DNA of 64,000 nt. It comes from Bacteroidota bacterium. Lineage in GTDB: Bacteria > Bacteroidota > Bacteroidia > Bacteroidales > GCA-2748055. The stretch's first letter is position 1. Every line of letters begins with the position of its first letter. Shown in pieces: positions 835 to 59,889 of the stretch. A program made the position numbers and the translations under genes. Location of the stretch: NCBI GenBank assembly GCA_039714655.1, contig JBDLIX010000002.1:46242-110241 (forward strand), read 5' to 3'. The notes beneath the pieces were generated by a model. The model searched no databases. It was given only the letters and a program-made list of their open reading frames with translations, and was not told the origin of the DNA.

Positions 835-2283
835 ATGCTTAAACAGAGGCTCCAGCAAAAATTGCTTCAAAAGCTATCTCCGCAGCAGATCCAGATGATC
901 AAGCTGCTGGAGATTCCTGCTATTCAGATGGAGCAACGCATAAAAAAAGAACTTGAAGAGAATCCTGTACTGGAAGAGGGGAGCGAGGATCCCTTCAACG
1001 AACCGGAAGAGGTCAAAGAGGAACAGCCGGGCGAGCAGGCAGATGAGTTTTCCCTGGAAGATTATATGCAGGATGATGAGATCCCCAGTTACAGACTGAA
1101 TGCACAGAATTATTCCGCAGACGAGAAGAGGGAAGAGATTCCTTTTACAATGGGAAGCTCTTTCAAGGAACTATTGAAAAGTCAGCTGGGATTGAGGAAA
1201 CTGACTGAAGAGCAGGAGGTATTGGCTGAGTATATCCTTGGAAACATTGACGATGATGGATATTTGAGAAGAGACCTGGAAGCCATTGCTGATGATCTGG
1301 CCTTTTCAACAGGATTGGAACCTTCCTATGAGGTGTTGCATGAGGTTTTGATGGTAGTCCAGGAGTTAGATCCCGCGGGAGTTGGAGCCAGGAATCTCCA
1401 GGAATGTCTCTTGCTTCAGATTGAAAGGAAAGAGGTTGAGCAACCTGTAACCGCATTGGCCCACTCCATCCTGAAAAATCACTTTGAAGAATTTACCAAC
1501 AAACATTATGATAAGATCATTCAACGGCTCAACATTGCCGAGGAGGAGTTAAAAGCTGCCCTGGAGGAGATCCTCAGGCTCAATCCAAAACCCGGAGGAG
1601 CCATGGGAGAGTCACAGGGGAAATCATTTCATCACATTGTGCCTGATTTTATCCTTGAGGAGAGCGAAGGTGAACTTCATCTCTATCTCAATTCAAATAA
1701 TGTTCCCGAATTGAGGGTCAGCAAAACTTATTCGGAGATGTTCGAAAGTTATACTGCCAACAAGGCCTCCGCCACCAGGGATGAAAAAGATGCCATCACT
1801 TTTGTAAAGCAAAAGTTGGATTCGGCCAAATGGTTTATTGATGCCATCAGGCAACGGCAGAATACCATGTTGTTAACCATGAATGCCATCCTCGATTATC
1901 AGAGGGAGTATTTCTACGAAGGGGATGAAATAAGGATGCGTCCCATGATACTGAAGGATATAGCAGACATGACCCACCTGGATATATCCACCATTTCAAG
2001 GGTCGTAAACAGCAAGTATATTCAGACCCATTTTGGAATCTATCCCCTGAAGTATTTCTTTTCGGAAGGGATGCAAACCGAAAGCGGGGAGGAGGTCTCC
2101 ACCCGGGAGATCAAAAAGATCCTGCAGGATTGCATAGACAATGAGGAAAAGCGGAAACCACTAACGGATGACAGGCTTTCGGTCATTCTTAATGAAAAAG
2201 GTTACCAGATTGCCAGAAGAACAGTGGCCAAATACAGGGAGCAGCTGGGTTTACCCGTAGCCAGACTGCGCAAAGAGCTATAA
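835..2283 (+). CDS. rpoN: RNA polymerase sigma-54 factor
   Basis: 482 aa. It has a Gln/Leu-rich N-terminus (LQQKLLQKLSPQQIQMIKLL), an acidic linker and the C-terminal RpoN box ARRTVAKYREQLGLP. Confidence 0.95.
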   Translation: MLKQRLQQKLLQKLSPQQIQMIKLLEIPAIQMEQRIKKELEENPVLEEGSEDPFNEPEEVKEEQPGEQADEFSLEDYMQDDEIPSYRLNAQNYSADEKREEIPFTMGSSFKELLKSQLGLRKLTEEQEVLAEYILGNIDDDGYLRRDLEAIADDLAFSTGLEPSYEVLHEVLMVVQELDPAGVGARNLQECLLLQIERKEVEQPVTALAHSILKNHFEEFTNKHYDKIIQRLNIAEEELKAALEEILRLNPKPGGAMGESQGKSFHHIVPDFILEESEGELHLYLNSNNVPELRVSKTYSEMFESYTANKASATRDEKDAITFVKQKLDSAKWFIDAIRQRQNTMLLTMNAILDYQREYFYEGDEIRMRPMILKDIADMTHLDISTISRVVNSKYIQTHFGIYPLKYFFSEGMQTESGEEVSTREIKKILQDCIDNEEKRKPLTDDRLSVILNEKGYQIARRTVAKYREQLGLPVARLRKEL

Positions 2284-4160: not shown

Positions 4161-7100
4161 CTACCTGATTATCGTTACGGTCCCAGTAATGGGTTTCGCT
4201 CCACTGTACGGGATAATTACATAATAGTAGGATCCAACAGGTGCATCTTTTCCACGTGCTGTTCCGTCCCACCTGCTTCCACTGTTATAACCCACCGAGG
4301 AATAGAACTGATCACCCCAGCGGCTGTAAACTTCCACCAGTATATCCGGGAAGCTCTCAGAGTTCTTAATTTCAAAATAGTCATTGACCCCATCACCGTT
4401 TGGAGAGAACACGTTGTATACAGTTAAGTCCTCAATCACTTCGATAAATAGTGAATCCACCTCTTCACATCCAAACTCATTGGTTCCATAAACATAGTAC
4501 CTGATCGACTCAAAGAGTGTGGCTAAAGGATCGGGAGTGGTGCTGTTGTCAAGACCGGTGGTTGGCTCCCACCTGTAGTCACTGAAAGGTCCGCCGGTTG
4601 CTTCCAGTTGAATGGAGGATCCGGAAAACATAATGGTATCTTCAGTAGCTTCAATACCCGTAAGCGGAAAGAGTGTCACTGTGATGGAATCCCGGTTGTA
4701 GCAACCATAAGGGCTGGTCTCCTCTGTGATTGTAAGCACAAAGGTGGTGGATTCGGTAATCCCGTTGGTAATCGGATTTGCAATGGTTGTATCCACAATA
4801 AAAGGGGACGGGTCCCAGGCCGGGGTATGGCCTCCAAGACCGTTTAACTGAATGGATTCACCATAACAAATGGTGGTATCCTCACCTGCATTGGCTTCCA
4901 CAATCAAAAAGCTGTTAACGTTGAATGTGTCGTTACGGGTACAATTATTGCTATCCCTTGTTTCCAGGGTATAGATGCCAGCTACGATATTGGAGCGGTC
5001 CTCTTCAACGCTGCCATCCGACCACAGGAACGAGTAAGCTCCAGAACCTCCCGACACTGTAATATCAATGGCTCCTGTTTCACTGAAAGCATTACACCAC
5101 GCTGGTGTGATATTCTGGTTGAGAAGAATTTCAGTGGGTTCTGTGAGGGTAGTTACACCGGTAAATACTTTGCCCATTTCGTCCCTGGCAATCAGATAAT
5201 AAGTGCTGTTTCCCGGAAGGTTCTCAAATAGTGCAGTTGAAACATAATTCATTCCGCTGTCAATGGAATACTCCACCCATCCCTCGGCATCCTGGGGGAC
5301 AAACTCGATGGTTCCGTCTACCTCTCCAAAACAGCTTACATGGGTTATATTGACAATCACATCCAGGGGTGGTACATCAAGGATGTCAACCATTGTGTCG
5401 TAGGTACAGCTGTTCAGATCCCTGATGATCACATGGTAAGTAGCAGCTTCTAAATCGCTGTAGAACGTATCACCGGTGAATGTCCCGGTATCACCCCCTA
5501 TGGTATACTGATAGGGGGGTGTTCCACCGGTGGATTCTGTGATGAGAATGGAGCCAAGGTTACCATAGATGGCATCTGTTTTTGTAATGGTGGCCATGAC
5601 CGGATCTGGTTCATTGAGCGTGACAGGCTCTGTAACTGAGCAACCAGCTTCATCCCTGAGGGTAACCGTATAGGGGCCAGCAGACAGGTTATTGAAAGCG
5701 CCGGTGGGTTGGTAAACAAGACCATCCAATGAATACTCCAGGTTGCCCGTTCCTCCACTACCAACCGCATCGATTGCTCCGGTGGTATCACCCGAACAAC
5801 TGGTTATATCAGTGGTGGTTACCGATAGGGAGAGTAATGGTGGATCTGTCATAACAATTGAGCCTCCATAGACCGTGCATACGTTTGCATCCCTGATGTA
5901 TATTTCATAGGTAGCCGGGGTCAGTCCGGTAGAGAGGCTGTCGGCCGACCAACTGCCCTGGTTGTCAAAGGAGTATTCGTAGGGACGAACTCCACCGGAA
6001 ACATAAATGCTGATACTGCCATCGCCTGCTCCGTTGCAACTGATGTTGTCATAGAGCAGTGAATCAATGATCAGGGCAGGGGGATCAGTGATCGAAAATG
6101 GTGAAGAGTCAACCGGACCGCAACCGGCCGCATCGCTGACAGATACAGTATAAGTACCGGGCATTAATCCGTTAAATACGCCTGTTCCATTGGATACGGC
6201 TCCGGGATTGAGTGTGAAGTTCAGAGGAGCCGTTCCACCTGAGGCTGCGATCTGGATAATACCATCATTGGCTCCCGAACAGGTAATATCGGTAAATTGC
6301 TCGGTCAGGATCGCAATAACTGAAGGTTCTGCAATGGAGAAGAGTGTATCCAGGGTACAATCATTGACATCTTTCAGGGTTAAGGTATGACTCCCTGCCA
6401 GAAGCCCGTTAAAGGTCCCACTGGCCTGGTACGCTCCTCCATCCAACGAAAATGTAAAGGCTCCTGTCCCTCCTGATCCTGCCACCACCACTGAACCGGT
6501 CGCGTCACCATTGCATCCCGTTACATCGGTTACGGTCAAATTGTCCACCACAATCTCCGGTGTATGGAGGGTCACCAGGTCGGGATAAGTTGCAAAACAC
6601 CCGTTCACATCGATAACAGTCAGGGAATAAGTATCGGCCAACAGTCCTGTTGGATCCTCGTCGGTAGAGATGGTGATCCCTGAACCATTGGTCCAGTCGA
6701 AAGAGAATGGAGCTGTACCTCCGGTCACATCGATCTGGATGGATCCGTTGGCATCCCCATAACAAAGCACATCCTCATGAGATATATAGGAGGCGACAAG
6801 TGGAGTTGGGTCAATGATGGTCTCCTGGTCAGGAAAGCTGACCACGCATCCTTTGCCGTCTGTGATGGTTAAACTATAGCTGCCGGCAGCAAGTCCTGAA
6901 ATATCCTCCAATGTGGAAGTATAACCTGAAGGACCCGACCAGGCATATGTGTAGGGTAGGGTTCCGCCTGTAACAGTAATATCAATGGCTCCGTCTGTTA
7001 ATCCACCACAGGAGATATCTGTTTTCACTGAAGATACCTGGATCTCGGCAGGCCCAAGGAGTGTGACAATGTCTGTAAATGTTTCGGAGCAGAGGTTGGC

Positions 7101-11573: not shown

Positions 11574-11912
11574 TTAATCATTTAAGAGGTTGTCGATCCG
11601 GTCAATGTAATCGAGCGAATCGTCCAGATAAAACACAAATTCAGGAATGTGCCTTAACTGATTCCTCAGCCTTTTACCCATTTCACTCCGGATCAGGCCT
11701 GCCCTGTCCGAAATAGCTTTCACGGCCTCTTCCAGCCCCTCACCCGGAAAAATGCTCAGGTAAACTTTAGCTACACCAAGATCAGGGCTGATCCGAACGA
11801 CGGTAACCGTTACCATCTTACCACCGGTGAGATTTGAACCATTTTTCTGGAAATAATCGCCAAGCTCTTTTTGCAATAGCCTGGATACTTTATGCTGGCG
11901 GGTAGTTGTCAT
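11574..11912 (-). CDS. rbfA: Ribosome-binding factor A
   Basis: MTTTRQHKVSRLLQKELGDYFQ...VTVVRISPDLGVAKVYLSIF. I prefer the ATG at 11912 over the ATG at 11942 because homologues start close to the TRQ motif. Confidence 0.87.
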   Translation of the reverse strand: MTTTRQHKVSRLLQKELGDYFQKNGSNLTGGKMVTVTVVRISPDLGVAKVYLSIFPGEGLEEAVKAISDRAGLIRSEMGKRLRNQLRHIPEFVFYLDDSLDYIDRIDNLLND

Positions 11913-11917
11913 CGTGG

Positions 11918-11925
11918 CAAAAGTA
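11918..11925 (-). promoter_or_regulatory. Bacteroidota -7 promoter box TACTTTTG upstream of rbfA
   Basis: Exact TAnnTTTG on the minus strand, only 5 nt before the ATG at 11912. This would imply a leaderless or near-leaderless mRNA. Confidence 0.3.
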
Positions 11926-11946
11926 CGTTTTTTCAATAACATTTTA

Positions 11947-11954
11947 TAGTTTTG
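11947..11954 (+). promoter_or_regulatory. Bacteroidota -7 promoter box TAGTTTTG upstream of trpS
   Basis: Exact TAnnTTTG, 29 nt before the ATG at 11984. Confidence 0.35.
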
Positions 11955-11983
11955 CAGTTACCTTAAAAAGCGTAGCGAAACCT

Positions 11984-12973
11984 ATGGATACAGTATTAAG
12001 CGGGATCAGATCAACAGGGAAATTGCACCTGGGCAATTATTTTGGAGCAGTTAAGAATTTTGTGAAGATGCAACACAAGAACAGGTGTTTCTTTTTTGTG
12101 GCTGACTATCATTCGCTCACCACTCATCCAACTCCTGAAAACTTGCATAATAACATTCGGATTGTGCTGTCGGAATACCTTGCAGCCGGACTGGATCCGG
12201 AGGTTGCCACGCTGTACATCCAGAGCGACGTCCCTGAAATTTCAGAGCTCTACCTCCTGCTCAACATGAATGCCTATGTGGGTGAGTTGGAACGCACCAC
12301 CACCTTCAAGGAAAAGATCCGAAAGCAACCGGAAAACATCAATGCAGGACTGCTGACCTATCCGGTCCTGATGTGTGCCGATATTATCATACACAACGCA
12401 GATAAGGTTCCCGTTGGAAAGGATCAGGAGCAGAACCTGGAGATGGCCCGGAAATTTGCACGCCGTTTTAATCACATGTACGGTGTAGAGTATTTCAAAA
12501 TGCCCGAGCCTTACAACTTCGGTGAGGAGCTGGTGAAGGTACCCGGACTGGATGGTACTGGAAAGATGGGTAAAAGTGAAGGCAACGGGATCTATCTTTC
12601 AGATGAACCGGATGTGATCCGAAAGAAGGTGATGCGGGCTGTAACCGATGCGGGTCCCAAGGAACCCAATTCTCCAATGGCTGAACCGGTGGCCAACCTC
12701 TTTTACCTGCTGGAGTTGTTATCCACACCCGATACCGTTGAACATTTCAGAGCCAGTTATAACGACTGCACCATCCGTTACGGGGACCTGAAAAAGCAAC
12801 TGGCAGAGGAGATGATTACTTTTACCACGCCTATCAGGGAGCGCATCAATGCGATCTACAATGACTCTGACTACCTCGGGAAAGTGGTGAAAATGGGCGC
12901 TGAAAAAGCCCGCGAAAGTGCATCCAAGACGGTTCGTGAAGTCCGCGAAATCCTTGGTTACAAGCCGTTTTAA
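11984..12973 (+). CDS. trpS: Tryptophan--tRNA ligase
   Basis: MDTVLSGIRSTGKLHLGNYFG (HIGH-type motif) and KMGKS (KMSKS). The ORF-track start at 11906 would overlap rbfA and the divergent promoter, so the ATG at 11984 is preferred. Confidence 0.94.
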   Translation: MDTVLSGIRSTGKLHLGNYFGAVKNFVKMQHKNRCFFFVADYHSLTTHPTPENLHNNIRIVLSEYLAAGLDPEVATLYIQSDVPEISELYLLLNMNAYVGELERTTTFKEKIRKQPENINAGLLTYPVLMCADIIIHNADKVPVGKDQEQNLEMARKFARRFNHMYGVEYFKMPEPYNFGEELVKVPGLDGTGKMGKSEGNGIYLSDEPDVIRKKVMRAVTDAGPKEPNSPMAEPVANLFYLLELLSTPDTVEHFRASYNDCTIRYGDLKKQLAEEMITFTTPIRERINAIYNDSDYLGKVVKMGAEKARESASKTVREVREILGYKPF

Positions 12974-12980
12974 ACCTTTC

Positions 12981-13054
12981 GTATATGTTTTAACGCTACT
13001 TAAAATCTTCCTTCGGAATATTTGTAGGTAGCTTATATAACATATACTTCAGGA
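12981..13054 (+). repeat. Imperfect-palindrome intergenic repeat, copy A
   Basis: gtatatgtt..aacgctactt..cttcgg..aggtagctt..aacatatac followed by cttcagga. It has a 9-bp perfect terminal inverted repeat and lies 8 nt after the trpS stop. It is homologous to copies B, C1 and C2. Confidence 0.75.
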
Positions 13055-13219
13055 AATAGTAACGTTACTGAAACAATGCTCTTCTGTGGCCTTCTCCTTT
13101 TTGTAGCCTTACCTGAAAATTGGACACTACACTTTTAGATAAAATTGTACATTTAAAGAGTAATTCAAACATGATCGTCGATACGAGCAATTTCATAATA
13201 TCGCCTAACAATATAAATA

Positions 13220-15286: not shown

Positions 15287-17506
15287 ATGTCCTCCTTAAC
15301 CAATCTGTTGTCCCGTTTCCTGGTCCTGTTGATTCTCATGCTCTCAATCTCCTGCTCGCACAGCTCCATTAAACTTGCGAAGAAGGGGATAAGCGGCTAT
15401 GAGATTGTGATCCCGGATGATCCCGATAGCACCATCCGGAGAGCAGCCAGCGAACTGGAGCACTATTTACACCAGATTTCAGGGGCGGAAATACCGGTAA
15501 GCAAGATTAACCGCAGGGACCCTGAGAAGCATGCGATATTTGTGGGATCCGGGTTCAAAGATGAAACGTTATCTGCCCTTACGGTGGGTTACCGTGTGGA
15601 AGGGCGGGATCTCTATATTTATGGAGGGAATTCCAAGAGCACCCTCTATGCCGTATACCGGTTCCTTGAAAATGAACTGGGCTGCCTGTGGTTAAGCCCG
15701 GAAACGGAGAAGGTACCCGCGGTAGACCGCATAGTCATCGAAGGAGGAACCGACTACCGTTATGCTCCCCAGATCGAAACCCGCACCGTTCACTCACGGC
15801 TCTTTTACGATAACCACCGTTTTGCCGACAAGCTTGGGGTCACCTATGAGGCTTTCCCTGGCTATGTGCCGGGTGCCGGGGTGCATACCTTTCACAGGTT
15901 CATGCCGGAAGGCTCATTCTATAAGTCCCATCCGGAGTATTATGCACTTCGCAACGGAAAACGGCTTACCACCCAGCTGTGCCTGACTAATAAGGAGGTG
16001 CTGCAGATCGTAACCGATTCTGTAAGGGCCTATTTTGCAAGGTTCCCGGATGCTGCTGTTATTTCCGTGAGCCAGGATGACAATACCCAGTATTGCCAGT
16101 GTGATCAGTGTGCGGCAATTGATAAGGAAGAGGGCTCTCCCAGTGGTTCCATGATCCGGTTCGTAAATGCTGTGGCGGAACACTTCCCGGATAAGATGAT
16201 CTCAACCCTAGCCTACCAATATACCAGGAAACCACCGGTGACCAAACCACTCTCAAATGTCCTGATCACCCTCTGTTCCATAGAGTGCGACCGCAGCAAA
16301 CCCATTGAAGAGGGCTGTACAGATTTTGCGGCCGATCTCAAAGGCTGGAAAGAGCTTACCGAAAGTATCAGGATATGGGATTACACTACCCAGTTCACCA
16401 ACTTCCTGGCCCCCTTTCCGAATATACATACCCTGAAACCCAATATTGAATTTTTCCGGGACAACCATGCCAAATGGATATTTGAACAGCATAGCCACCA
16501 TCCCAGTGAACTTTTCGAACTGCGATCCTACCTGACCGCACAATTGCTATGGAACCCGGACCGGGATGCGGAAGAGATCATGCAGGAGTTTTGTACAGCC
16601 TATTACCAGGAAGCAGCACCCTATATTCTCGACTACATTCACACCATTCATGAAGAGATCCAAAAGGTGCCGGAGTTCTTTCTCTTCCTGTACGGTGATC
16701 CGTCTCAGGGTTTTGAATCGTTCCTGAAGCCTGAGCTGCTCACAAAATATGACAAACTCTATGAAGATGCTGAGAAAGCAGTTACAGAAAAACCCGAAGT
16801 GCTGGAGCGGGTGAAACGGGCGAGGCTCAGTACCCATTATGCCATACTGGAGGCTTCAAGAAAAGGTGTTTCCGGGGAGTACAGGATGTCATATGAGGTG
16901 CGGCCGAGGTTAAAGACATTTGAAGAGACCTGCCGGTCAGCCGGGATCACCCTGATGAATGAGATGAGATACTCGGTTGAGGAATATGTTGAGACCTATG
17001 AGAAGGCAATGGAACGGGCTGCCATGCCTAACCGGGCAGCTGGGAAACCGGTAAAACTACTGACACAACCTAAGAACTATGCGGGGGAAGATCCCCAGGC
17101 GTTAACAGACGGTAGCCTGGGAGGGAACAGTTTTTACTCCAACTGGCTGGGGTTCGAGGGTAATGATATGGAGGCGGTCATTGACCTGAAAAGGGAGAGA
17201 GAGGTCACCTTTCTTCACACGGCATTCCTAAAAGTCGTCAACCATATCGTTTTTTTCCCGGAAGAGCTGATCATATCCGGTTCAGTGGATGATCAAAAAT
17301 ACTATGAGATCGCAAGGAAGAAAACAGAACATCCGTTGCAGAAGGGAGATAAGATCAATGATATTGAGTTCTTCACATTTCAGTTCCCACCTGTTGAGGC
17401 CCGATATATCAAATTACATGCAAGAAGTATGAAAAAAGCACCCCCATGGCATCATGCTTCAGGATTGCCTGTCTGGACCTTTTGTGATGAGGTGATTATC
17501 TATTAA
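15287..17506 (+). CDS. DUF4838-like lipoprotein (glycoside-hydrolase-like) with a C-terminal F5/8 type C (discoidin) carbohydrate-binding domain
   Basis: 739 aa with the lipobox LSISC. The central segment is SQDDNTQYCQCDQCAAIDKEEGSPSGSMIRFVNAV. The C-terminal ~150 aa (ALTDGSLGG..WLGF..ARYIKLHA) look discoidin-like. The family call is from memory. Confidence 0.7.
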   Translation: MSSLTNLLSRFLVLLILMLSISCSHSSIKLAKKGISGYEIVIPDDPDSTIRRAASELEHYLHQISGAEIPVSKINRRDPEKHAIFVGSGFKDETLSALTVGYRVEGRDLYIYGGNSKSTLYAVYRFLENELGCLWLSPETEKVPAVDRIVIEGGTDYRYAPQIETRTVHSRLFYDNHRFADKLGVTYEAFPGYVPGAGVHTFHRFMPEGSFYKSHPEYYALRNGKRLTTQLCLTNKEVLQIVTDSVRAYFARFPDAAVISVSQDDNTQYCQCDQCAAIDKEEGSPSGSMIRFVNAVAEHFPDKMISTLAYQYTRKPPVTKPLSNVLITLCSIECDRSKPIEEGCTDFAADLKGWKELTESIRIWDYTTQFTNFLAPFPNIHTLKPNIEFFRDNHAKWIFEQHSHHPSELFELRSYLTAQLLWNPDRDAEEIMQEFCTAYYQEAAPYILDYIHTIHEEIQKVPEFFLFLYGDPSQGFESFLKPELLTKYDKLYEDAEKAVTEKPEVLERVKRARLSTHYAILEASRKGVSGEYRMSYEVRPRLKTFEETCRSAGITLMNEMRYSVEEYVETYEKAMERAAMPNRAAGKPVKLLTQPKNYAGEDPQALTDGSLGGNSFYSNWLGFEGNDMEAVIDLKREREVTFLHTAFLKVVNHIVFFPEELIISGSVDDQKYYEIARKKTEHPLQKGDKINDIEFFTFQFPPVEARYIKLHARSMKKAPPWHHASGLPVWTFCDEVIIY

Positions 17507-17549
17507 GATCCGACTGATTGCCTCTCCTCGCTTCCCCAAGTTTTACTAA

Positions 17550-17634
17550 CTCCTTACACAGATGTTATATAAGCTGCCTATAATACTTTACGAAGTAAAG
17601 GATTTAAGTAGCGTTAGAATATCTGTGTAAGGAG
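17550..17634 (-). repeat. Imperfect-palindrome intergenic repeat, copy B (inverted relative to copy A)
   Basis: 14-bp perfect terminal inverted repeat: ctccttacacagat (17550-17563) pairs with atctgtgtaaggag (17621-17634). The apical stem is ctttac-gaa-gtaaag. The core aligns to the reverse complement of copy A at roughly three quarters of positions by hand. Confidence 0.8.
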
Positions 17635-17640
17635 GGATAG

Positions 17641-17671
17641 AAAAATAAAAGTCCGCCTGTGAGAGACGGAC
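17641..17671 (-). terminator. Intrinsic terminator (minus strand)
   Basis: Minus-strand RNA reads GUCCGUCU-CUCAC-AGGCGGAC followed by UUUUAUUUUU. The stem is 8 bp including one G-U. That pair would be a C-A mismatch on the plus strand, so the structure and the U-tract are minus-strand specific. Confidence 0.65.
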
Positions 17672-17714
17672 CTGGCCCTGAAATTGTCAGGGAATATGAT
17701 TGGATGAACTGTCA
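17641..17714 (-). ncRNA. Candidate ~70-nt sigma-54-dependent small RNA
   Basis: Bounded by the predicted TSS (~17714) of the sigma-54 promoter and by the terminator. It has an internal 6-bp hairpin CCCUGA-CAAUU-UCAGGG (17676-17692) and no ORF. Confidence 0.3.
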
Positions 17715-17724
17715 ACTATATAGC

Positions 17725-17740
17725 TGCAAATTGCGTGCCA
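17725..17740 (-). promoter_or_regulatory. Sigma-54 (-24/-12) promoter, exact consensus
   Basis: The minus strand reads TGGCACGCAATTTGCA, which equals TGGCACG-N4-TTGCW. It lies 5 nt downstream of the ung stop codon in a gene-free spacer. Confidence 0.5.
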
Positions 17741-17745
17741 AAAAG

Positions 17746-18414
17746 TTACAGTGTCCAATCAATCCTTTGATCTTTCAGGTATTCATTGGTTTTTGAGAAG
17801 TGTTTACAACCAAAAAATCCATTGTATGCAGAGAGAGGGGAAGGATGAGCGGCTTTAAGGATCAGGTGCTTTTGGCCATCGATAAGGGATTCCTTGGCCT
17901 GGGCATAGCGTCCCCATAGTAAAAAGACAACCCCGCTTCTCCGGGCAGAGATCTGTTCAATGACACGGTTGGTAAATGTTTCCCATCCCCTGTTCTGGTG
18001 TGATCCGGCCTGACTGTCACGTACCGTCAGTGTTGCATTGAGAAGCAGGACTCCCTGATCGGCCCATTTTTCCAGGTTGCCGTGTTCCGGGACAGGAATG
18101 CCCAGGTCTGCATGCAACTCCTTGAAAATATTAACAAGTGAAGGGGGTTTCGGGATCCCGGGCGGAACGGAAAAGCATAATCCATGTGCCTGACCTTTGC
18201 CATGATAAGGGTCCTGTCCGAGGATCACCACTTTCACGCTGTCGAAGGGGGTATGTCGAAATGCATTAAAAATGAGATTCCCGGGCGGAAAGATGGTATG
18301 TTGCTGTTTCTCTTCAAGCAGGAACGCTTTTAATTCACTGAAATAGGGTGATTGGAACTCTTCCCAGAGAATTTCCTTCCACTTCTCTTCAATGACCGGA
18401 TTAATTGTTTGCAT
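17746..18414 (-). CDS. ung: Uracil-DNA glycosylase (family 1)
   Basis: [22 protein letters not shown] and HPSPLSA motifs. The ATG at 18414 (MQTINP..) is preferred over the TTG at 18432. Confidence 0.94.
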
Positions 18415-18455
18415 GGATAGGAAAGATACCAAATGTGCAGCACCTCCCCAAAAGA

Positions 18456-29809: not shown

Positions 29810-30706
29810 CTAGTATTCCCAGAGGTCATGTTCCATGATGAACAGATCCCTCTTGATCCGTTCAGCCTCCAGCAAAACATCCTGTCCCAGTTTATAGTCT
29901 GTCAGCATCCTGTTTCCAAAAACATTGGATTCGGCAATGACGGTACTGGAGAAACGACGCTGGAAAAAGAGATCGTCAAATGAAATGGACTGCGCATCAT
30001 TGTTGGGGTTGTACACAGAGTGAGTGGCAAACAACCTGCGACATTGTGGAAAATGCACCACAAATGGAATGGATAACCTGGGAGCAGGCAGTCGTTCATT
30101 GAATTCATCGTAATAATTATAAAAGACCGGGGCAATTGCAACAATGCGTACCTTCATGACCGAATGCTGCTTGTCAAAATACCACTGCTCCTGAATCTGG
30201 AATTGAATAATGTCATTTGATCTCTGATCAACCCTCAAAAAATTATCATCATCATCCCAGACAGTATCTCCAGCTGTTGCCTCGTATATATCCTCCAGCG
30301 TGGTGGTAACGGAAAAGGGATCCTTCCAGCCAGCAATGGGATTAAAGAAATAGGGGGTAATCTCTTCAGTCTTGATCCCCTCCATCAACAATCCAAACAA
30401 GCTGTATCTCTCTCCATCGCTCATGGACCCTTGGGTGGGATAACGGAGCGGCATGTTCATGCGGTGACGGAGGTCAATGGCGCGCCACATGTCCTTGCCC
30501 CACATTACATCGGCTTCCCGGATATAACTATAGGGAACCGGTTTCTTTTCCGGGATGATCGTTTCCGATACATATACATCCGTACTGGGGGTGTATGAAG
30601 TAATTACCGGTGCATTCCCAGGTGTAATTGTCTGTGTTTGTGCAGATAAGGAAACTATCCCTAACATGAGCACTGCTGTTCCAATAATATATCTTTTTGC
30701 TTTCAT
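29810..30706 (-). CDS. gldN: T9SS/gliding motility periplasmic ring protein GldN (PorN)
   Basis: 298 aa with a signal peptide, immediately after gldM (1-nt gap). Position in the operon and length fit GldN. Confidence 0.85.
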   Translation of the reverse strand: MKAKRYIIGTAVLMLGIVSLSAQTQTITPGNAPVITSYTPSTDVYVSETIIPEKKPVPYSYIREADVMWGKDMWRAIDLRHRMNMPLRYPTQGSMSDGERYSLFGLLMEGIKTEEITPYFFNPIAGWKDPFSVTTTLEDIYEATAGDTVWDDDDNFLRVDQRSNDIIQFQIQEQWYFDKQHSVMKVRIVAIAPVFYNYYDEFNERLPAPRLSIPFVVHFPQCRRLFATHSVYNPNNDAQSISFDDLFFQRRFSSTVIAESNVFGNRMLTDYKLGQDVLLEAERIKRDLFIMEHDLWEY

Positions 30707-30707
30707 C

Positions 30708-32297
30708 TTAAATAACTATTATGGTGATGCCATTCAAGTTCCTTAGCACGCCATCAGGACCAGTTGCCTTAATCTTTTCAATCATGATCCTCTGTCCACT
30801 TCTTAATTGGCGGAAAAGGTTCTTTTGTTCAGAGGTAAAACGTTCGCTGTCCGATTTCATTGAGCTCCAGATGTTGCCCTGTCCCTGGAATGCTACCTGA
30901 AAAGACTTGACTTTGTATTCCACTTCAAACACAAAATCTTCTGCTTTCGCTTCCACAATCTTTAATTGGGAAAGATTTCCAACGGTGAGATTTCCTTCAG
31001 ATCCCCTTACTCCTTTCACCTTTGCATCTGGTGTGGGCAGGTTAAAGACCCTGAAATCCATCCGGTTCATCAAGGTTCTGGACCCATTTGATTGAGAATA
31101 TACACTCACGGTAGCTTTTTTCCCCTGTGGTCCGGGTTTCACAACATACTCTCCCGGCCGGATCCTGCGAATCGTACCACTGGATATTGCAGCTTTTACT
31201 GTACTTTCAGCAACTCCACCTGCGGAGATTTCAACGGGATTTGGAATACCACGGTAAAACACATTCATCCCTGTAGCAGCAATTGTTGCGTTGGCTTCGG
31301 CTACCTCAAATTCTGCTTCAAATGAACGGCTTATTACATTTCCTTCGTTTTCAAGTTGAATGGTACCTCCCCACTTACGGATCCCAATGGAATTGGATGT
31401 AGCAGTATAGACACCCTTTCCGGATTCCACATCAAGCATGGTCCCATTATTAAGCTTTACTTCCGGCATTTTGGTGGAGTCGTAAGCTGCAAGAAAAACC
31501 TTGGCCCTGTACTCCTGTCCCCTGAAAACCAAGCTTCGATCGGGAATTACCACAGCCTCCAGGGTATTGACCGGTACGGCACCGGCATCCACCTGTCCCA
31601 GAAGATAATTGAGCATCTCAGCTTCCACATTACGTGCATCTGCCTGCATTTTGGAAAGCAGCGTAACCACAGCCGCCAGAGGAAGATCTTCGAAATAACC
31701 TGATTCCCAGGTCATAAGATCTCCAGCTCTTTGCTTCTTGTGTTGAATCTTATCGGGTGGATCGGTACTTAAATTATCGTTAATGGCCTCTATGGTAGAA
31801 GCATATTTCTCATGATCATCCACAATGGACAAGAGGTATTCACGGAGATCATCAATCTTCTGTTTCAATTCTTTATATCTCCGGCCTCCTTCTAAAGTGA
31901 TCATAACCGTAGCTCCGATTTCCAGATTATCCTTCACCTTCACCTCATGCCAGTCAATAGAGCCTTCATGAATAGCTTTTTCATCTTTTTCACGGATGAT
32001 ATCAAGTTTGCATTCCTGTATATAATTGTACAAATCATCGGTTCGGGCATGCATTTCATCTGCCCTGTCTTTCCAAATACTGTATTTTTCGGGATTTTGT
32101 TCACTTGATATTGAGAACTGACTGTAGACCCCTGCATTTTTTTCAGCAAAGCTCTCGGTGGTTACCTGAAGTCCGTTGTCGACCAATACGAATGCATCCA
32201 GCACCTCCTTTGATACATTCAGTGCCAACATGGCTGTCAGCACCAAATACATCATACCGATCATCTTTTGTCTCGGTGTTTCTTTACCGCTTGCCAT
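30708..32297 (-). CDS. gldM: T9SS/gliding motility protein GldM (PorM)
   Basis: The N-terminus MASGKETPRQKMIGMMYLVLTAMLALNVSKEVLDAF is the hallmark GldM TM helix. 529 aa. Confidence 0.93.
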   Translation of the reverse strand: MASGKETPRQKMIGMMYLVLTAMLALNVSKEVLDAFVLVDNGLQVTTESFAEKNAGVYSQFSISSEQNPEKYSIWKDRADEMHARTDDLYNYIQECKLDIIREKDEKAIHEGSIDWHEVKVKDNLEIGATVMITLEGGRRYKELKQKIDDLREYLLSIVDDHEKYASTIEAINDNLSTDPPDKIQHKKQRAGDLMTWESGYFEDLPLAAVVTLLSKMQADARNVEAEMLNYLLGQVDAGAVPVNTLEAVVIPDRSLVFRGQEYRAKVFLAAYDSTKMPEVKLNNGTMLDVESGKGVYTATSNSIGIRKWGGTIQLENEGNVISRSFEAEFEVAEANATIAATGMNVFYRGIPNPVEISAGGVAESTVKAAISSGTIRRIRPGEYVVKPGPQGKKATVSVYSQSNGSRTLMNRMDFRVFNLPTPDAKVKGVRGSEGNLTVGNLSQLKIVEAKAEDFVFEVEYKVKSFQVAFQGQGNIWSSMKSDSERFTSEQKNLFRQLRSGQRIMIEKIKATGPDGVLRNLNGITIIVI

Positions 32298-32318
32298 AGA
32301 TCAGGATTATAGGGTTAA

Positions 32319-33281
32319 TTATTTTTTTCTGATGCTCATCGCGGAGAGCATGTTGCCGTATACATTATTCAGCTCAGAAAGACTTTCGCTGAGTTTTACA
32401 ATTTCGCTCTTATACTTCTGAGTCTCCTCAACGGATGACTGAAGACTGGAGATCATCTCGTTCAGCCCCTGGAATACCTCGGAAGTACCCTGAAGGTGAT
32501 CTTTGCTTCCCTTGACCTGGTCAGAATATGAAGAATTCAAATCCACAAGATTCCTATTCAGGGATTCAAGCTGACTGTTAAATTGTTTCTGACTCTGTGA
32601 GATATTGGTGTGCTCCTGTTTTACCTCACCCGACATGGCCTCATAGGTGGCAGTCAGGTTGGCACTGGAAGCTGAAAACTTATCGGCAATGTCCTTGCCT
32701 TTCTGATCAATCAGGGAAGCTGTATTCTTATATGAATCGGCAAGTGTATTTACAGATTCATTGAGTGCTCCGGTGTTGGACCCATAGGCGTTGGCCACAT
32801 TGTCCATATTCTGCGCGGCTGAACCCATCTTGTCGAAGTACTCCTTGGTAGCCAGTGAAGCAGTGGTAATATCACCAATGGTCTCCGTGGTGGAGGAAAT
32901 CGTATTCAGATGTTTACCAAGGCTGCGAACATCTTCAGCGTTGATCTGGGATTGCTGGAACAATTCATCAAATTTTTGCAATCCTACATTTCTGTCGGCA
33001 ATGGCTTGCTCCTTGTACTCGTCAATTTCATCCGGATCGGACATACCTGCCAATTCCGGGTAAACCAGGGTCCAGTCAAGCTCTTCATGCAAAGGCTCAA
33101 ATGCCGAGAAGAAGAAAATAATGGCCTCAGTGATCAGTCCAGCCGCCAGGGCAACTGTGGACCCAGGCCAGTGTTGGATTTTGAAAAGAGCTCCGATAAT
33201 TACAAGAGATGCTCCGAAACCATATAACTTGGCCGTAAAACTCTTCCAACCCGAACTTTGAACAATTTCTGTAATTCCCAT
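32319..33281 (-). CDS. gldL: T9SS/gliding motility motor protein GldL (PorL)
   Basis: Two N-terminal TM helices (YGFGASLVIIGALFKIQHWPG...GLITEAIIFFFSAFEP) and a long C-terminal coiled-coil-like tail. 320 aa. Confidence 0.92.
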   Translation of the reverse strand: MGITEIVQSSGWKSFTAKLYGFGASLVIIGALFKIQHWPGSTVALAAGLITEAIIFFFSAFEPLHEELDWTLVYPELAGMSDPDEIDEYKEQAIADRNVGLQKFDELFQQSQINAEDVRSLGKHLNTISSTTETIGDITTASLATKEYFDKMGSAAQNMDNVANAYGSNTGALNESVNTLADSYKNTASLIDQKGKDIADKFSASSANLTATYEAMSGEVKQEHTNISQSQKQFNSQLESLNRNLVDLNSSYSDQVKGSKDHLQGTSEVFQGLNEMISSLQSSVEETQKYKSEIVKLSESLSELNNVYGNMLSAMSIRKK

Positions 33282-33297
33282 TATATAAAGTGTTTAA

Positions 33298-34683
33298 TTA
33301 TTGATCACCTAAATACGAACGAACACATCTGAATCCAATGTATGATTTGGCAGTATCCTGATATTCGTAGTCGCGGGTACTGACCTGTAGATAACGTGCT
33401 ATGTCTTTCCAGGATCCACCCCTGACTACTTTCCGCTTCATAACTGGTGGATCATCAGGTTTAGCATTGTAATTGTAATAAGGGTTCATATCGTGTGAAA
33501 ACACGTATGCAGAAGGATCATAAGCAGTAATGGTCCATTCGGCCACATTCCCTGCCATATCGTAGAGGCCAAACTCATTGGGAACTCCATAATAACCTAC
33601 CCTGGCAGGATACATGGAGCCATCGTCCGTATAATTACCCCGCAATGGTTTGAAATTGGCGATAAAACAACCCAGTTTATTTCTCAGGTAAACACCACCC
33701 CAGGGGTACATGCTGTGATCCAGGTTCCCTCTTGCTGCATATTCCCACTCAGCTTCGATAGGAAGCCTGAAATCCTGAACCGTGGGTTGACCACTATTGG
33801 ATAACGCATGATTCAGGTAATTGGTCCTCCAGTTACAAAATGCATTGGCCTGCTTCCAGTTAATCCCCACTACCGGGTAGTTGTCGTATGATGGAGAGCG
33901 GAAATACATGTTTGTCATGGGTTCATTAAATGAGTAGGTAAAATCCCTGACCCAGACCAGTGTATCGGGGTAGACCAGCACCCAGTCTTTGTTTACAAAT
34001 GAAGCCCTGCTTGTTACCTCTTCCTGTTCGCCGGTGGGCCTGGTGACAGTCCCACCGTAAGTAACCACTGGATCTGCACTGCCTCCGGAATAATCCAGAC
34101 GGAAACCATTGGCAGCTCTTGAAGCCTGAACCAGGTCAACCCAGTAATAATTGTAAATAAGCTTGGTAACATTGATCTCTTTGGAGATAAGGGAAAGTCG
34201 ATCGGCTCCACTGTAGTAAATGCCCAGATCATCAATAATCTGAGAAATGTTGCCTTCTTTGTCTTTAGAAGGATCCAGTGAAGCGTTCCAGTCGATTACA
34301 GGATCTCCATCCAAGTCCTCAAGGGGCTGGCCTTCATCATCTTTCATCATAAAATCCTCAATTCCCTGGATGGCAAGCTCTTTCCGGATAATAGAATCAC
34401 GAATCCAGTTTACATACTGCCGGTATTCATTGTTTGTAATTTCTGTTTCATCCATCCAGAAGGCGTCGACCGCTACTGTCCTTGCCATACTGTTCTGAGT
34501 CCATGTTACATCCTGATCACTGGGGCCCATCAAAAATGAACCTGTAGGAATCGGTACCATTCCAAATGGATCGGGTTCAGCATACGCCTTTCTACCCTCT
34601 ACTCCAACAAGCTCACCATTGTTGTAAGAACTACAACTTCCAATGAGTGCTGCTATACCAACTATTATCACTATTTGTTTCAT
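33298..34683 (-). CDS. gldK: T9SS/gliding motility lipoprotein GldK (PorK), FGE-sulfatase (SUMF1) fold
   Basis: Lipobox LIGSC from the ATG at 34683. Also FWMDETEITNNEYRQY.. and ..RGGSWKD...GFRCV, typical of GldK/SUMF1. Confidence 0.92.
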   Translation of the reverse strand: MKQIVIIVGIAALIGSCSSYNNGELVGVEGRKAYAEPDPFGMVPIPTGSFLMGPSDQDVTWTQNSMARTVAVDAFWMDETEITNNEYRQYVNWIRDSIIRKELAIQGIEDFMMKDDEGQPLEDLDGDPVIDWNASLDPSKDKEGNISQIIDDLGIYYSGADRLSLISKEINVTKLIYNYYWVDLVQASRAANGFRLDYSGGSADPVVTYGGTVTRPTGEQEEVTSRASFVNKDWVLVYPDTLVWVRDFTYSFNEPMTNMYFRSPSYDNYPVVGINWKQANAFCNWRTNYLNHALSNSGQPTVQDFRLPIEAEWEYAARGNLDHSMYPWGGVYLRNKLGCFIANFKPLRGNYTDDGSMYPARVGYYGVPNEFGLYDMAGNVAEWTITAYDPSAYVFSHDMNPYYNYNAKPDDPPVMKRKVVRGGSWKDIARYLQVSTRDYEYQDTAKSYIGFRCVRSYLGDQ

Positions 34684-34757
34684 AGCTAAACGCTTATAAG
34701 ATGCAAAAATCAACGTTTCTCGAATTTATAAAAAACAATGTTAAATATAGATAAATT

Positions 34758-48807: not shown

Positions 48808-50643
48808 ATGTGTGGTATTGTAGGCTATATCGGGAACAAAGATGCTTACCCTATACTTATTAAAGGTTTGAAGAGACTTGAATACCGCGGCTATGATTCT
48901 GCGGGTGTGGCTCTGTTAAACAGTGAAACGTCCATCTATAAGAAGAAGGGAAAGGTTTCTGAGCTGGAAGATCATGTGAGGGGTAAAGAGACCAAAAGTA
49001 CCATCGGGATTGGGCATACCAGATGGGCTACCCACGGGGAACCCAGCGATCTGAATGCACATCCTCACCATTCCAACAAGGGATTGTTTACCATTATTCA
49101 TAACGGTATTATTGAGAATTATGCAGTTTTGAAACAGAGCCTGATTGATCATGGGATGAGCTTTTATAGCGAGACCGACACAGAGGTTCTGGCCAATCTG
49201 ATCGAATATATCTATACGACACAGGATGTTAGCGTTGAGTTAGCGGTTGGTCTGGCCCTGCAAAAGGTGGAGGGTGCGTATGGACTGGTGGTAATTTCCA
49301 GAGAGGACCCCAACCTGATGATAGCAGCCCGCCGAAGCAGTCCCCTTGTTATCGGGCTGGGCGATAATGAGTATTTCATCGCCTCCGATGCCACTCCAAT
49401 TGTAGAGTATACCGACAGGGTGATCTACCTGAACAATGATGATATGGCCCTGATCAGGAAGGATGAATTGGTGCTGAAGAACCTGACAAGCGATGCTACC
49501 AAGGTCAATATTCAGACCCTGGACCTGGGGATATCCGAAATCGAAAAGGGAGGATATGATCATTTCATGTTGAAAGAGATCTTTGAGCAACCCCGTTCCA
49601 TTATGGATACTTTCAGGGGTAGGATCAAGCCCGACACCAATGAGATCAGGCTCGGGGGACTCCATACAGTAAAGGATCAGTTGGTGAATGCCAAACGCAT
49701 CGTGGTGATTGCCTGCGGAACTTCGTGGCATGCAGGACTGGTGGGAGAGTATCTGATCGAGGATCTGGCCAGGATCCCCGTGGAAGTGGAATATGCTTCA
49801 GAATTCCGATACAGGAATCCGATGATCGGTCCCGACGATGTGGTACTGGCCATTAGTCAGAGTGGCGAAACCGCTGATACCCTGGCAGCCATTCAGCTGG
49901 CCCGTGATGCAGGGGCTCTGGTCATAGGTATATGCAATGCAGCAGGTTCAAGTATCTCACGGGAAACCAATGCAGGGGTCTATACACATGCCGGCACCGA
50001 GATCGGTGTGGCTTCCACAAAAGCATTTACGGCACAGGTAACGGTACTGACCATGATGTCCCTGATGATCGGGAGGGAGAAAGGACTGCTTTCCGATGAG
50101 CGATTTTCCAACCTGATCGGGGAGTTGAATGATGTTCCCGGCAAAATTGAGAAAATTCTGGAGCAGAACGATGATTTTATGCGAATCTCAGAAATCTATA
50201 AGGATGCTACCAATGCACTCTACCTTGGTCGTGGTGTTTCCTTTCCTGTGGCATTGGAGGGGGCGCTAAAACTGAAGGAGATCTCTTATATTCATGCCGA
50301 AGGATATCCGGCCGCAGAGATGAAGCATGGCCCTATTGCGCTGATAGATAAGGAGATGCCTGTTTTTTTCATTGCAACCCGTGATAGTTCGTACGAGAAG
50401 ATTGTGAGTAATATCCAGGAGGTGAAAGCAAGAAATGGAGTTGTAATTGCCATTGTATCCGAAGGGGATGAGACCATCCGGGAATTGGCCGATCACATCA
50501 TTGAAATTCCCCATTCGGATGACGCCCTGGTCTCCTTGCTATCGGTGGTACCTTTACAGCTGATCGCATATCACATTGCAGTAATGCGGGGTTGCGATGT
50601 GGACCAACCCAGGAACCTGGCCAAATCGGTCACTGTCGAATAA
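48808..50643 (+). CDS. glmS: Glutamine--fructose-6-phosphate aminotransferase (isomerising)
   Basis: MCGIVGY N-terminal nucleophile, two SIS domains, C-terminus ..NLAKSVTVE. 611 aa. Confidence 0.97.
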   Translation: MCGIVGYIGNKDAYPILIKGLKRLEYRGYDSAGVALLNSETSIYKKKGKVSELEDHVRGKETKSTIGIGHTRWATHGEPSDLNAHPHHSNKGLFTIIHNGIIENYAVLKQSLIDHGMSFYSETDTEVLANLIEYIYTTQDVSVELAVGLALQKVEGAYGLVVISREDPNLMIAARRSSPLVIGLGDNEYFIASDATPIVEYTDRVIYLNNDDMALIRKDELVLKNLTSDATKVNIQTLDLGISEIEKGGYDHFMLKEIFEQPRSIMDTFRGRIKPDTNEIRLGGLHTVKDQLVNAKRIVVIACGTSWHAGLVGEYLIEDLARIPVEVEYASEFRYRNPMIGPDDVVLAISQSGETADTLAAIQLARDAGALVIGICNAAGSSISRETNAGVYTHAGTEIGVASTKAFTAQVTVLTMMSLMIGREKGLLSDERFSNLIGELNDVPGKIEKILEQNDDFMRISEIYKDATNALYLGRGVSFPVALEGALKLKEISYIHAEGYPAAEMKHGPIALIDKEMPVFFIATRDSSYEKIVSNIQEVKARNGVVIAIVSEGDETIRELADHIIEIPHSDDALVSLLSVVPLQLIAYHIAVMRGCDVDQPRNLAKSVTVE

Positions 50644-59609: not shown

Positions 59610-59889
59610 ATCATCTCAATTTAAGTTCAATTTAGAAATCCACCGTATCTGACGATGGTCATGCATGTTTGGCTGGGCAAATATCGCAATATGATCAAAT
59701 ATTGCAAGCTTATACAGTGATTTATCAAAGTTGTTTTTCCAGGTAATAGTAGTAGTAAGGATTCCTGCGACTGTACAGGTTGTAGACTGAGAAAGTCCAG
59801 TTGGCATCATCTTTGAGATTGGCGGCAATAAATTATGGTTCTGCAACAAGCAGCGCAAAAGTCAACTTTGATATGATCATAACAATGGT

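Follow-up and report, generated by a model that had tools for sequence, protein, structure and literature searches.

A conserved small RNA gene with a predicted sigma-54 promoter and an invariant 5' end in uncultured Bacteroidales

The window (the whole 64,000-nucleotide stretch of Bacteroidota DNA that was analysed) carried on its minus strand, at 17745-17641, what we read as a self-contained small-RNA gene with its own sigma-54 promoter, a statement to which, taken whole and including the use of sigma-54, we assign a probability of about 0.7. Its parts differ in strength. That a real and conserved sRNA gene is present we hardly doubt; the pattern of conserved bases makes a promoter of the sigma-54 type highly probable; and base-pairing through a seed is the mode of action that we favour for the RNA.

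The candidate promoter, TGGCACGCAATTTGCA, occupied minus-strand letters 17740 to 17725 and started 5 nt past the stop codon of ung (uracil-DNA glycosylase, 17746..18432, minus strand, Pfam PF03167), the co-oriented gene upstream. It lay inside a gene-free spacer of 239 bp between ung and a convergent DUF4838 gene (15287-17506, plus strand). Taken as a predicted sigma-54-type promoter (17725..17745, minus strand), the site comprised a T-tract (17745-17741), a -24 element TGGCAC with its GG doublet (17740-17735), a -12 element TTTGC with its GC doublet (17730-17726), and A17725, and the G of the -12 element stood exactly 12 nt after the first G of GG. An A/T-rich spacer, GCTATATAGTT (17714..17724, minus strand), presumably the melting region, led from the -12 element to the start site. 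An earlier reading made from the sequence alone had described an exact match to the -24/-12 consensus at this place, 5 nt beyond ung and within the 239-bp spacer, and the letters bore this description out. The core TGGCAC-N5-TTGC occurred a single time in the 64-kb window, and with one mismatch allowed the sole further match, at 7721, fell within a coding region. The sequence-only reading had also estimated about 0.1 chance matches per 64 kb, close to the mean of 0.12 core matches that shuffled windows gave. Because 11 of 100 shuffled windows also held at least one match, a single match is weak evidence, suggestive and not significant by itself; what decides the matter is conservation.

Downstream of this site, the predicted primary transcript was a non-coding small RNA of about 73 nt (17641..17713, minus strand) that scored 92 bits with covariance model R1; the model detected this single copy in the window and no paralogue. 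There was no AUG in the RNA. Its 5' region, GACAGUUCAUCCAAUCAUAUU (17693..17713, minus strand), was 21 nt long and unpaired in the MFE fold, and the first 13 nt of it (GACAGUUCAUCCA, 17713-17701, minus strand), invariant in homologs, are the presumed seed. In the same fold, hairpin 1 followed at 17676..17692 (minus strand), with a 6-bp stem CCCUGA/UCAGGG and the loop CAAUU. A terminator scan and folding then placed an intrinsic terminator at 17641..17673 (minus strand), made up of a 10-bp stem-loop (17673-17649) and UUUUAUUUUU, in which the U tail spanned 17648-17641. Folded from 17714 to 17641 on the minus strand, the RNA reached a free energy of -21.8 kcal/mol (z = -4.4), and none of 200 shuffles folded as well. 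The plus-strand copy folded more weakly, had a stem mismatch and lacked a U tail, and the terminator scan called the site on the minus strand only. The free 5' stretch, 6-bp hairpin and minus-specific terminator that had been proposed from the letters were thereby recovered by folding and by the scan.

Homologs were gathered in two ways. Eighty loci around relatives of ung were fetched from species-representative genomes, all of them uncultured Bacteroidales/Bacteroidia MAGs, with ung 61-81% identical. A first search of 81 sources (the 80 loci and the window) used the 13-mer after the predicted start, with up to 2 mismatches and without the promoter, and found one copy each in 26 loci and the window, giving 27 homologs. 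With a cut-off of E = 1, covariance model R1, built from these 27, recovered exactly the same 27 and no others from the 81 sources. Metagenomes were scanned with a pattern drawn from the RNA alone (GACAGTTCATCCA, 0-3 nt, ATAT), and 120 stretches matched; 23 had the downstream hairpins, and all 23 of these had the promoter too, while the remaining 97 were coding or chance matches with neither hairpins nor promoter. The total came to 50 distinct homolog sequences, 27 from ung loci and 23 from metagenomes, and R1 scored one copy in each of the 49 loci other than the window at 45-92 bits. An origin of this set as copies of one sequence, through assembly or contamination, does not fit, since the 50 sequences all differ and their surroundings vary. 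For the 23 metagenome copies, the scan pattern itself demanded an invariant seed; the 27 other homologs came from a search that did not require GACAGUUCAUCC, and in them it was invariant too. TTTG was imposed by no selection pattern and TGGCA in the final tabulation alone, and the earlier, unbiased searches found no member without TGGCA.

All 50 homologs carried TTTGGCA(C/T)-N4-TTTG, with the T-tract bases present in 47-48. Anchored on TGGCA, which was itself found in 50 of 50, the logo showed TT before it in 47-48 of 50, C (39) or T (11) after it, then G (38) or A (12), two variable bases, A or T (48 of 50), TTTG (50 of 50) and, at the position of the canonical -12 C, T (23), C (21) or A (6). 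Between the -12 element and the start, the bases held 0.2-0.8 bits per position in the 50 homologs. From the end of TGGCA to GACAG the distance was 22 nt in 46 homologs and one nt shorter or longer (21 or 23 nt) in 4, and the conserved block started 13 nt after the G of TTTG, with a pyrimidine at -1 and G at +1 in every homolog. Two invariant blocks at sigma-54 spacing, followed by a drifting spacer of constant length and by an invariant block at the place where transcription should begin, are together characteristic of a promoter with its transcript. Conservation puts the likely start at G17713, a small correction to the earlier estimate of about 17714. Sigma-54 use and this exact start site are what we infer from the pattern.

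The sequence-only reading had proposed to look in relatives for co-conservation of the -24/-12 elements with the RNA, and had named loss of the GG or GC doublet as evidence against its proposal. Every homolog (50 of 50) kept TGGCA and TTTG at a near-fixed distance from the RNA 5' end, and GG and the G of GC were never lost, but the -12 C was kept in 21 of 50 (42%). In Flavobacterium psychrophilum, motif SM4, derived from mapped start sites, has been assigned to sigma-54 (PMC9723704), and sigma-54 promoters of that species with G-T at the GC position include TTGGCACGATTTTAGTTGTG (remF), TTGGTCTAACTTTTGTTGTA, TCGGCATATTGTTTGTACAA and TTGGCACGGTAGTTGTAT (PMC9723704 supplement). Of five such promoters compared here, mapped or listed for that species, 4 have G-T, and the panD example alone has G-C (PMC9723704). 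Because the mapped promoters of F. psychrophilum often read TTGT, we read the variable -12 C as a lineage trait and do not count its loss as evidence against sigma-54; it is nonetheless the main sequence-level caveat. Sigma-54 promoters of this lineage would then accept T or A in place of the canonical -12 C, a point of relevance to promoter prediction in Bacteroidota.

A variable -12 C might also suggest that the RNA is real while TTTGGCAY-N4-TTTG is read by another sigma factor or by a DNA-binding regulator, with the RNA starting from a different promoter. Besides the C/T/A variation at that position (21, 23 and 6 homologs), this would fit with the failure to find either an enhancer site in three upstream contexts or an activator gene in the window, and with the occurrence of TTTG within the Bacteroidota housekeeping motif TAnnTTTG (PMC9723704). 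No homolog, however, had TA at the TAnnTTTG positions, and the invariant TGGCA 5 nt upstream of TTTG is the exact geometry of sigma-54. The RNA begins 13 nt after the G, as for sigma-54, against about 5 nt for the housekeeping -7 box, and the site is not palindromic, unlike an operator. TTGT at -12 is, moreover, found in mapped sigma-54 promoters of the phylum (PMC9723704). Reading by another factor is therefore unlikely in our view. A housekeeping promoter, for which TAnnTTTG is the reported motif in Bacteroidota (PMC9723704), was also considered as a candidate and rejected on the missing TA and on a wrong distance to the conserved start.

The sequence-only reading had itself offered the alternative that the hairpin and U tail are a plain ung terminator and that the sigma-54 match is a coincidence. 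Chance does produce an exact match in some shuffled windows (11 of 100, as above), and ung was directly upstream and co-oriented in 37 of the 50 homolog loci, its stop codon 3-8 nt before the promoter in about 25. In the window, where the two are 5 nt apart, the terminator scan found no terminator between the ung stop and the promoter; with only 5 nt available, the ung mRNA must end at the terminator of the RNA, so ung does use it and the RNA is at the same time the ung 3' UTR. A coincidental match is nevertheless hard to reconcile with promoter elements kept in 50 of 50 homologs at near-fixed spacing while the bases around them drift. It is equally hard to reconcile with the 21-nt stretch between promoter and hairpins, the most conserved part of all, of which a terminator has no need. 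The unit was also found without ung upstream in about 10 loci, where the upstream neighbour was a divergent gatC-like gene, ung was 3-5 kb off or absent, and T-tract, TGGCA and TTTG were all retained. We consider the plain terminator scarcely credible. Nearly as hard to credit is an RNA that lacks a promoter and arises solely when the 3' UTR of the ung mRNA is processed: read-through from ung has to occur both in the window and in the loci, roughly 25, with so short a gap, yet the -24/-12 elements are invariant and are kept even where ung is not upstream.

The two-hairpin structure was itself conserved. Each of the first 27 homologs folded individually into the same shape, and 49 of 50 had at least 18 free 5' nt followed by exactly two hairpins, with lengths of 65-77 nt. 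In alignment A3, which was fitted to the structure and so somewhat favours pairing (independent single-sequence folds agree), 90.1% of cells were in standard pairs against 80.1% in shuffles, 75 cells were compensatory and the covariation score was 0.29 against 0.14 in shuffles; none of 500 shuffles reached the observed percentage paired, number of compensatory cells or covariation score. Eight of the 16 pairs had changed on both sides, a count reached by 173 of 500 shuffles and so not above them. When partners were slid by 1-3 columns, pairing fell to 25-60%. Hairpin 1 had 4 of 6 pairs changed on both sides, with the pair types UA, UG, GU, CG, GC and AU, and in helix 2, the terminator, pairing reached 94.6% and 4 pairs had likewise changed on both sides. 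The terminator fell into two sequence classes (GGUCCGUCUC... and ACCGGGU...), and the stem was kept in both. Compensatory changes, by which the sequence-only reading had wished both stems to be judged, were thus seen in both hairpins. Of the general traits of a trans-acting seed sRNA, the RNA showed a conserved unpaired seed, a covarying body, an intrinsic terminator and no coding potential.

On the other side of the RNA, a convergent gene for a protein of 329 aa with class I tRNA-synthetase signatures lay within a few nt of the U tail in most loci. Its counterpart in the window was found at 11906-12973 (plus strand; Pfam tRNA-synt_1b), and from these signatures we read both as trpS. The trpS stop codon fell at +70 to +78 of the RNA, for example, in L001, L009, L021, L038, L124 and L191. 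Among the 80 ung loci, trpS was nearby in 25 of the 26 that bore the RNA and in 1 of the 54 that did not, and this tracking of the trpS neighbourhood indicates that the family is confined to one clade. The exception, L059, had convergent ung and trpS separated by a 267-nt, A/T-rich spacer (6663-6931) with no RNA and no -24/-12 motif, and represents a possible loss or outgroup state.

This arrangement raises the possibility that the RNA is mainly a cis-antisense RNA to trpS, the transcripts of which would run on into the RNA gene as its full complement. The position of trpS directly after the RNA in most loci, with its stop within a few nt of the RNA 3' end, its presence in 25 of 26 RNA-bearing loci against 1 of 54 others, and the strand-specific terminator, whose shared hairpin has no U tail on the trpS strand, would all be expected from such a role. 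It would be a strange antisense RNA, however, that kept its seed and promoter intact across a gap of 4.6 kb to trpS, filled by a block of other DNA, as in the window, or of 0.8-3.1 kb, as in six other loci. The invariance of the first 13 nt alone, while the hairpins drift, would be left unexplained, and partial complementarity to the seed in trpS was not kept at wobble positions. We judge a mainly cis-antisense role improbable. The promoter-plus-RNA unit moves independently of both neighbours, ung and trpS. A mere terminator of ung is thereby excluded, and a purely cis-antisense role toward trpS is disfavoured.

If the promoter is of the sigma-54 type, it is presumably read by RpoN. As the sequence-only reading had stated, rpoN was in the window (835..2283, plus strand), with an RpoN box and the three sigma-54 domains Sigma54_AID, Sigma54_CBD and Sigma54_DBD (Pfam). 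A search of the 64-kb window in every frame for an activator gene found no GAFTGA or related motif. Nor was any 10-mer (up to 1 mismatch, both strands, -250 to -4) common to three upstream contexts that might serve as an enhancer, the best combined score being 1.3 of 3 in a search that short or degenerate sites would escape. The ung 3' region, where the sequence-only reading had suggested looking for an enhancer-binding-protein site, and the sequence further upstream held no conserved site. Only one other intergenic sigma-54-like site was found in 914 kb, at 59802-59817 of the window (plus strand), where the letters read TTGGCATCATCTTTGA; it had been described as the second-best site, lacking the -12 GC, and this description holds. 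The site has the TGGCAY-N4-TTTG geometry, with A at the -12 C as in 6 of the 50 sRNA promoters, and the gene of an exported S9-family peptidase (59908-62073) lies about 106 nt downstream of it.

We postulate that sigma-54 RNA polymerase would bind the -24 TGGCAC and -12 TTTGC elements as a closed complex at 17740-17726, and that a putative enhancer-binding ATPase would open this complex upon a signal. Transcription would then run from G17713 to the U tail at 17648-17641, and hairpin 1 and the terminator hairpin may confer stability on the product. The invariant 13-nt 5' end, inside the 21-nt unpaired stretch, could act as a seed that pairs with target mRNAs in trans, as in RybB. Transcripts from ung would also cross the RNA and stop at its terminator, carrying it as the ung 3' UTR.

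In a duplex scan of the window with the seed, 141 sites reached -16 kcal/mol or lower, within the range of 51-278 given by ten shuffled seeds. Scanning 4 kb on either side of the RNA in the 50 loci gave one recurrent site, the trpS codons for NAYVGEL, with energies from -9 to -26 kcal/mol, typically about -16, and up to 15 bp in L011 (-25.8 kcal/mol). The match was present in the trpS of the window (11906-12973, plus strand) and in its homologs in about 35 loci. As a target it was rejected as probable chance, since the wobble base of the glycine codon varied freely (U, G, A or C). Gliding genes are under sigma-54 control in F. psychrophilum, and in enterobacteria glmS is regulated by GlmY/Z. 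The window held a gldK-L-M-N type IX secretion/gliding cluster (29810-34713, minus strand) and glmS (48808-50643, plus strand), as assigned partly from ORF sizes. Window scans showed no sigma-54 motif or seed match near either, and the duplex scan of the window gave no seed match near the glmS start.

The reported sigma-54 regulon of F. psychrophilum includes groESL, dnaK, grpE-dnaJ, htpG, lon, clpB and skp, together with a second cluster that contains gliding and exported proteins (PMC9723704). Such a regulon makes a role of the RNA in proteostasis or in an envelope response a reasonable guess. Both this possible link to the Flavobacterium stress regulon and the base-pairing mode of action are inferred.

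No family in Rfam 15 matched at gathering score anywhere in the window, and when the RNA regions of the window and L041 were searched up to E = 10, only noise came back. In the literature searched for sigma-54 or RpoN sRNAs in Bacteroides and Bacteroidetes, and for the seed string, this RNA was not described, and the F. psychrophilum transcriptome study (PMC9723704) was the one relevant paper. A close design is that of Qrr1-5 of Vibrio (RF00378), which are sigma-54/LuxO-dependent and, like the RNA here, combine a short RNA with a -24/-12 promoter, an intrinsic terminator and a conserved unpaired stretch. In Qrr that stretch pairs with several mRNAs, whereas for the RNA described here such pairing is a prediction, and the two do not match in sequence or structure. 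Qrr genes are present in several copies next to luxO; here there was one copy and no activator gene in the window. Qrr RNAs require Hfq, and to our knowledge Bacteroidota generally lack it.

RybB and MicL of Enterobacteria are sigma-E-dependent sRNAs that target outer membrane protein and lpp mRNAs, and the seed of RybB forms its 5' terminus. MicL is transcribed from a separate promoter, at the cutC 3' end, and shares the terminator of cutC. The RNA here resembles MicL and DapZ in that its promoter sits at the 3' end of the gene upstream, in this case ung, and one terminator serves both, a layout seen in about 25 homolog loci; it differs from RybB and MicL in its presumed sigma factor and in phylum, and has no homology to them. 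Other stand-alone non-coding RNAs with a sigma-54 promoter are GlmY/GlmZ (Enterobacteria), NrsZ and CrcZ (Pseudomonas) and Pxr (Myxococcus). These are longer, at about 150-400 nt against about 73 nt here, and several act by protein sequestration.

Within Bacteroidota, a non-coding RNA with a sigma-54 promoter is not entirely without precedent: Rfp1, Rfp36 and Rfp45 of F. psychrophilum are non-coding transcripts at putative sigma-54 (SM4) promoters (PMC9723704 supplement). They differ from the RNA here in their length of 200-350 nt, in the order of their host (Flavobacteriales) and, for one of them, in being antisense to glnS (PMC9723704). The printed sequence of Rfp36 lacks the seed GACAGUUCAUCC, and the cited parts of that paper report no cross-genome conservation of promoter plus RNA for the Rfp transcripts (PMC9723704). 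Since sigma-54 sRNAs of Proteobacteria and the Rfp transcripts are already known, the RNA is best read as a new sRNA family and not as a new kind, built on the known design of a sigma-54-driven RNA that base-pairs through a 5' seed. A more ambitious reading, which we regard as possible but doubtful, is that it represents the first family of seed sRNAs in Bacteroidales that is widely conserved, dependent on sigma-54 and independent of Hfq. The RNA would in that case be the non-coding arm of a sigma-54 proteostasis/envelope-stress regulon and would down-regulate a set of mRNAs through its 13-nt 5' end, as RybB, MicA and MicL do in the sigma-E response. For very few small RNAs of Bacteroidota is the transcriptional input known, and the phylum is without the Hfq machinery behind most of what is known of sRNAs; here conservation by itself suffices to read promoter type, start site, seed and structure. 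The family thus offers a clean entry point to sigma-54 control in these anaerobes, to the workings of a seed sRNA without Hfq, and to the activator and signal involved. R1 and the 50-sequence alignment A3 can be used to annotate this RNA in metagenome-assembled genomes.

The DNA that separates the RNA from trpS in the window had features of its own. Two imperfect inverted copies of a sequence of about 90 nt (12975-13062 and 17543-17632), 77-78% complementary, bounded a block of 4.5 kb that encoded a GFO/IDH/MocA oxidoreductase, a 3-keto-disaccharide hydrolase and the DUF4838 protein. The repeat copy nearer the RNA, at 17550-17634, was itself a long hairpin, and no further copies of the repeat were found in the window. 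Because trpS directly abuts the RNA in relatives, the block looks like DNA inserted between inverted repeats. The six other loci with a gap of 0.8-3.1 kb between RNA and trpS were L002, L004, L005, L010, L013 and L026, and the short convergent spacer between the two genes seems to be a recurrent insertion site.
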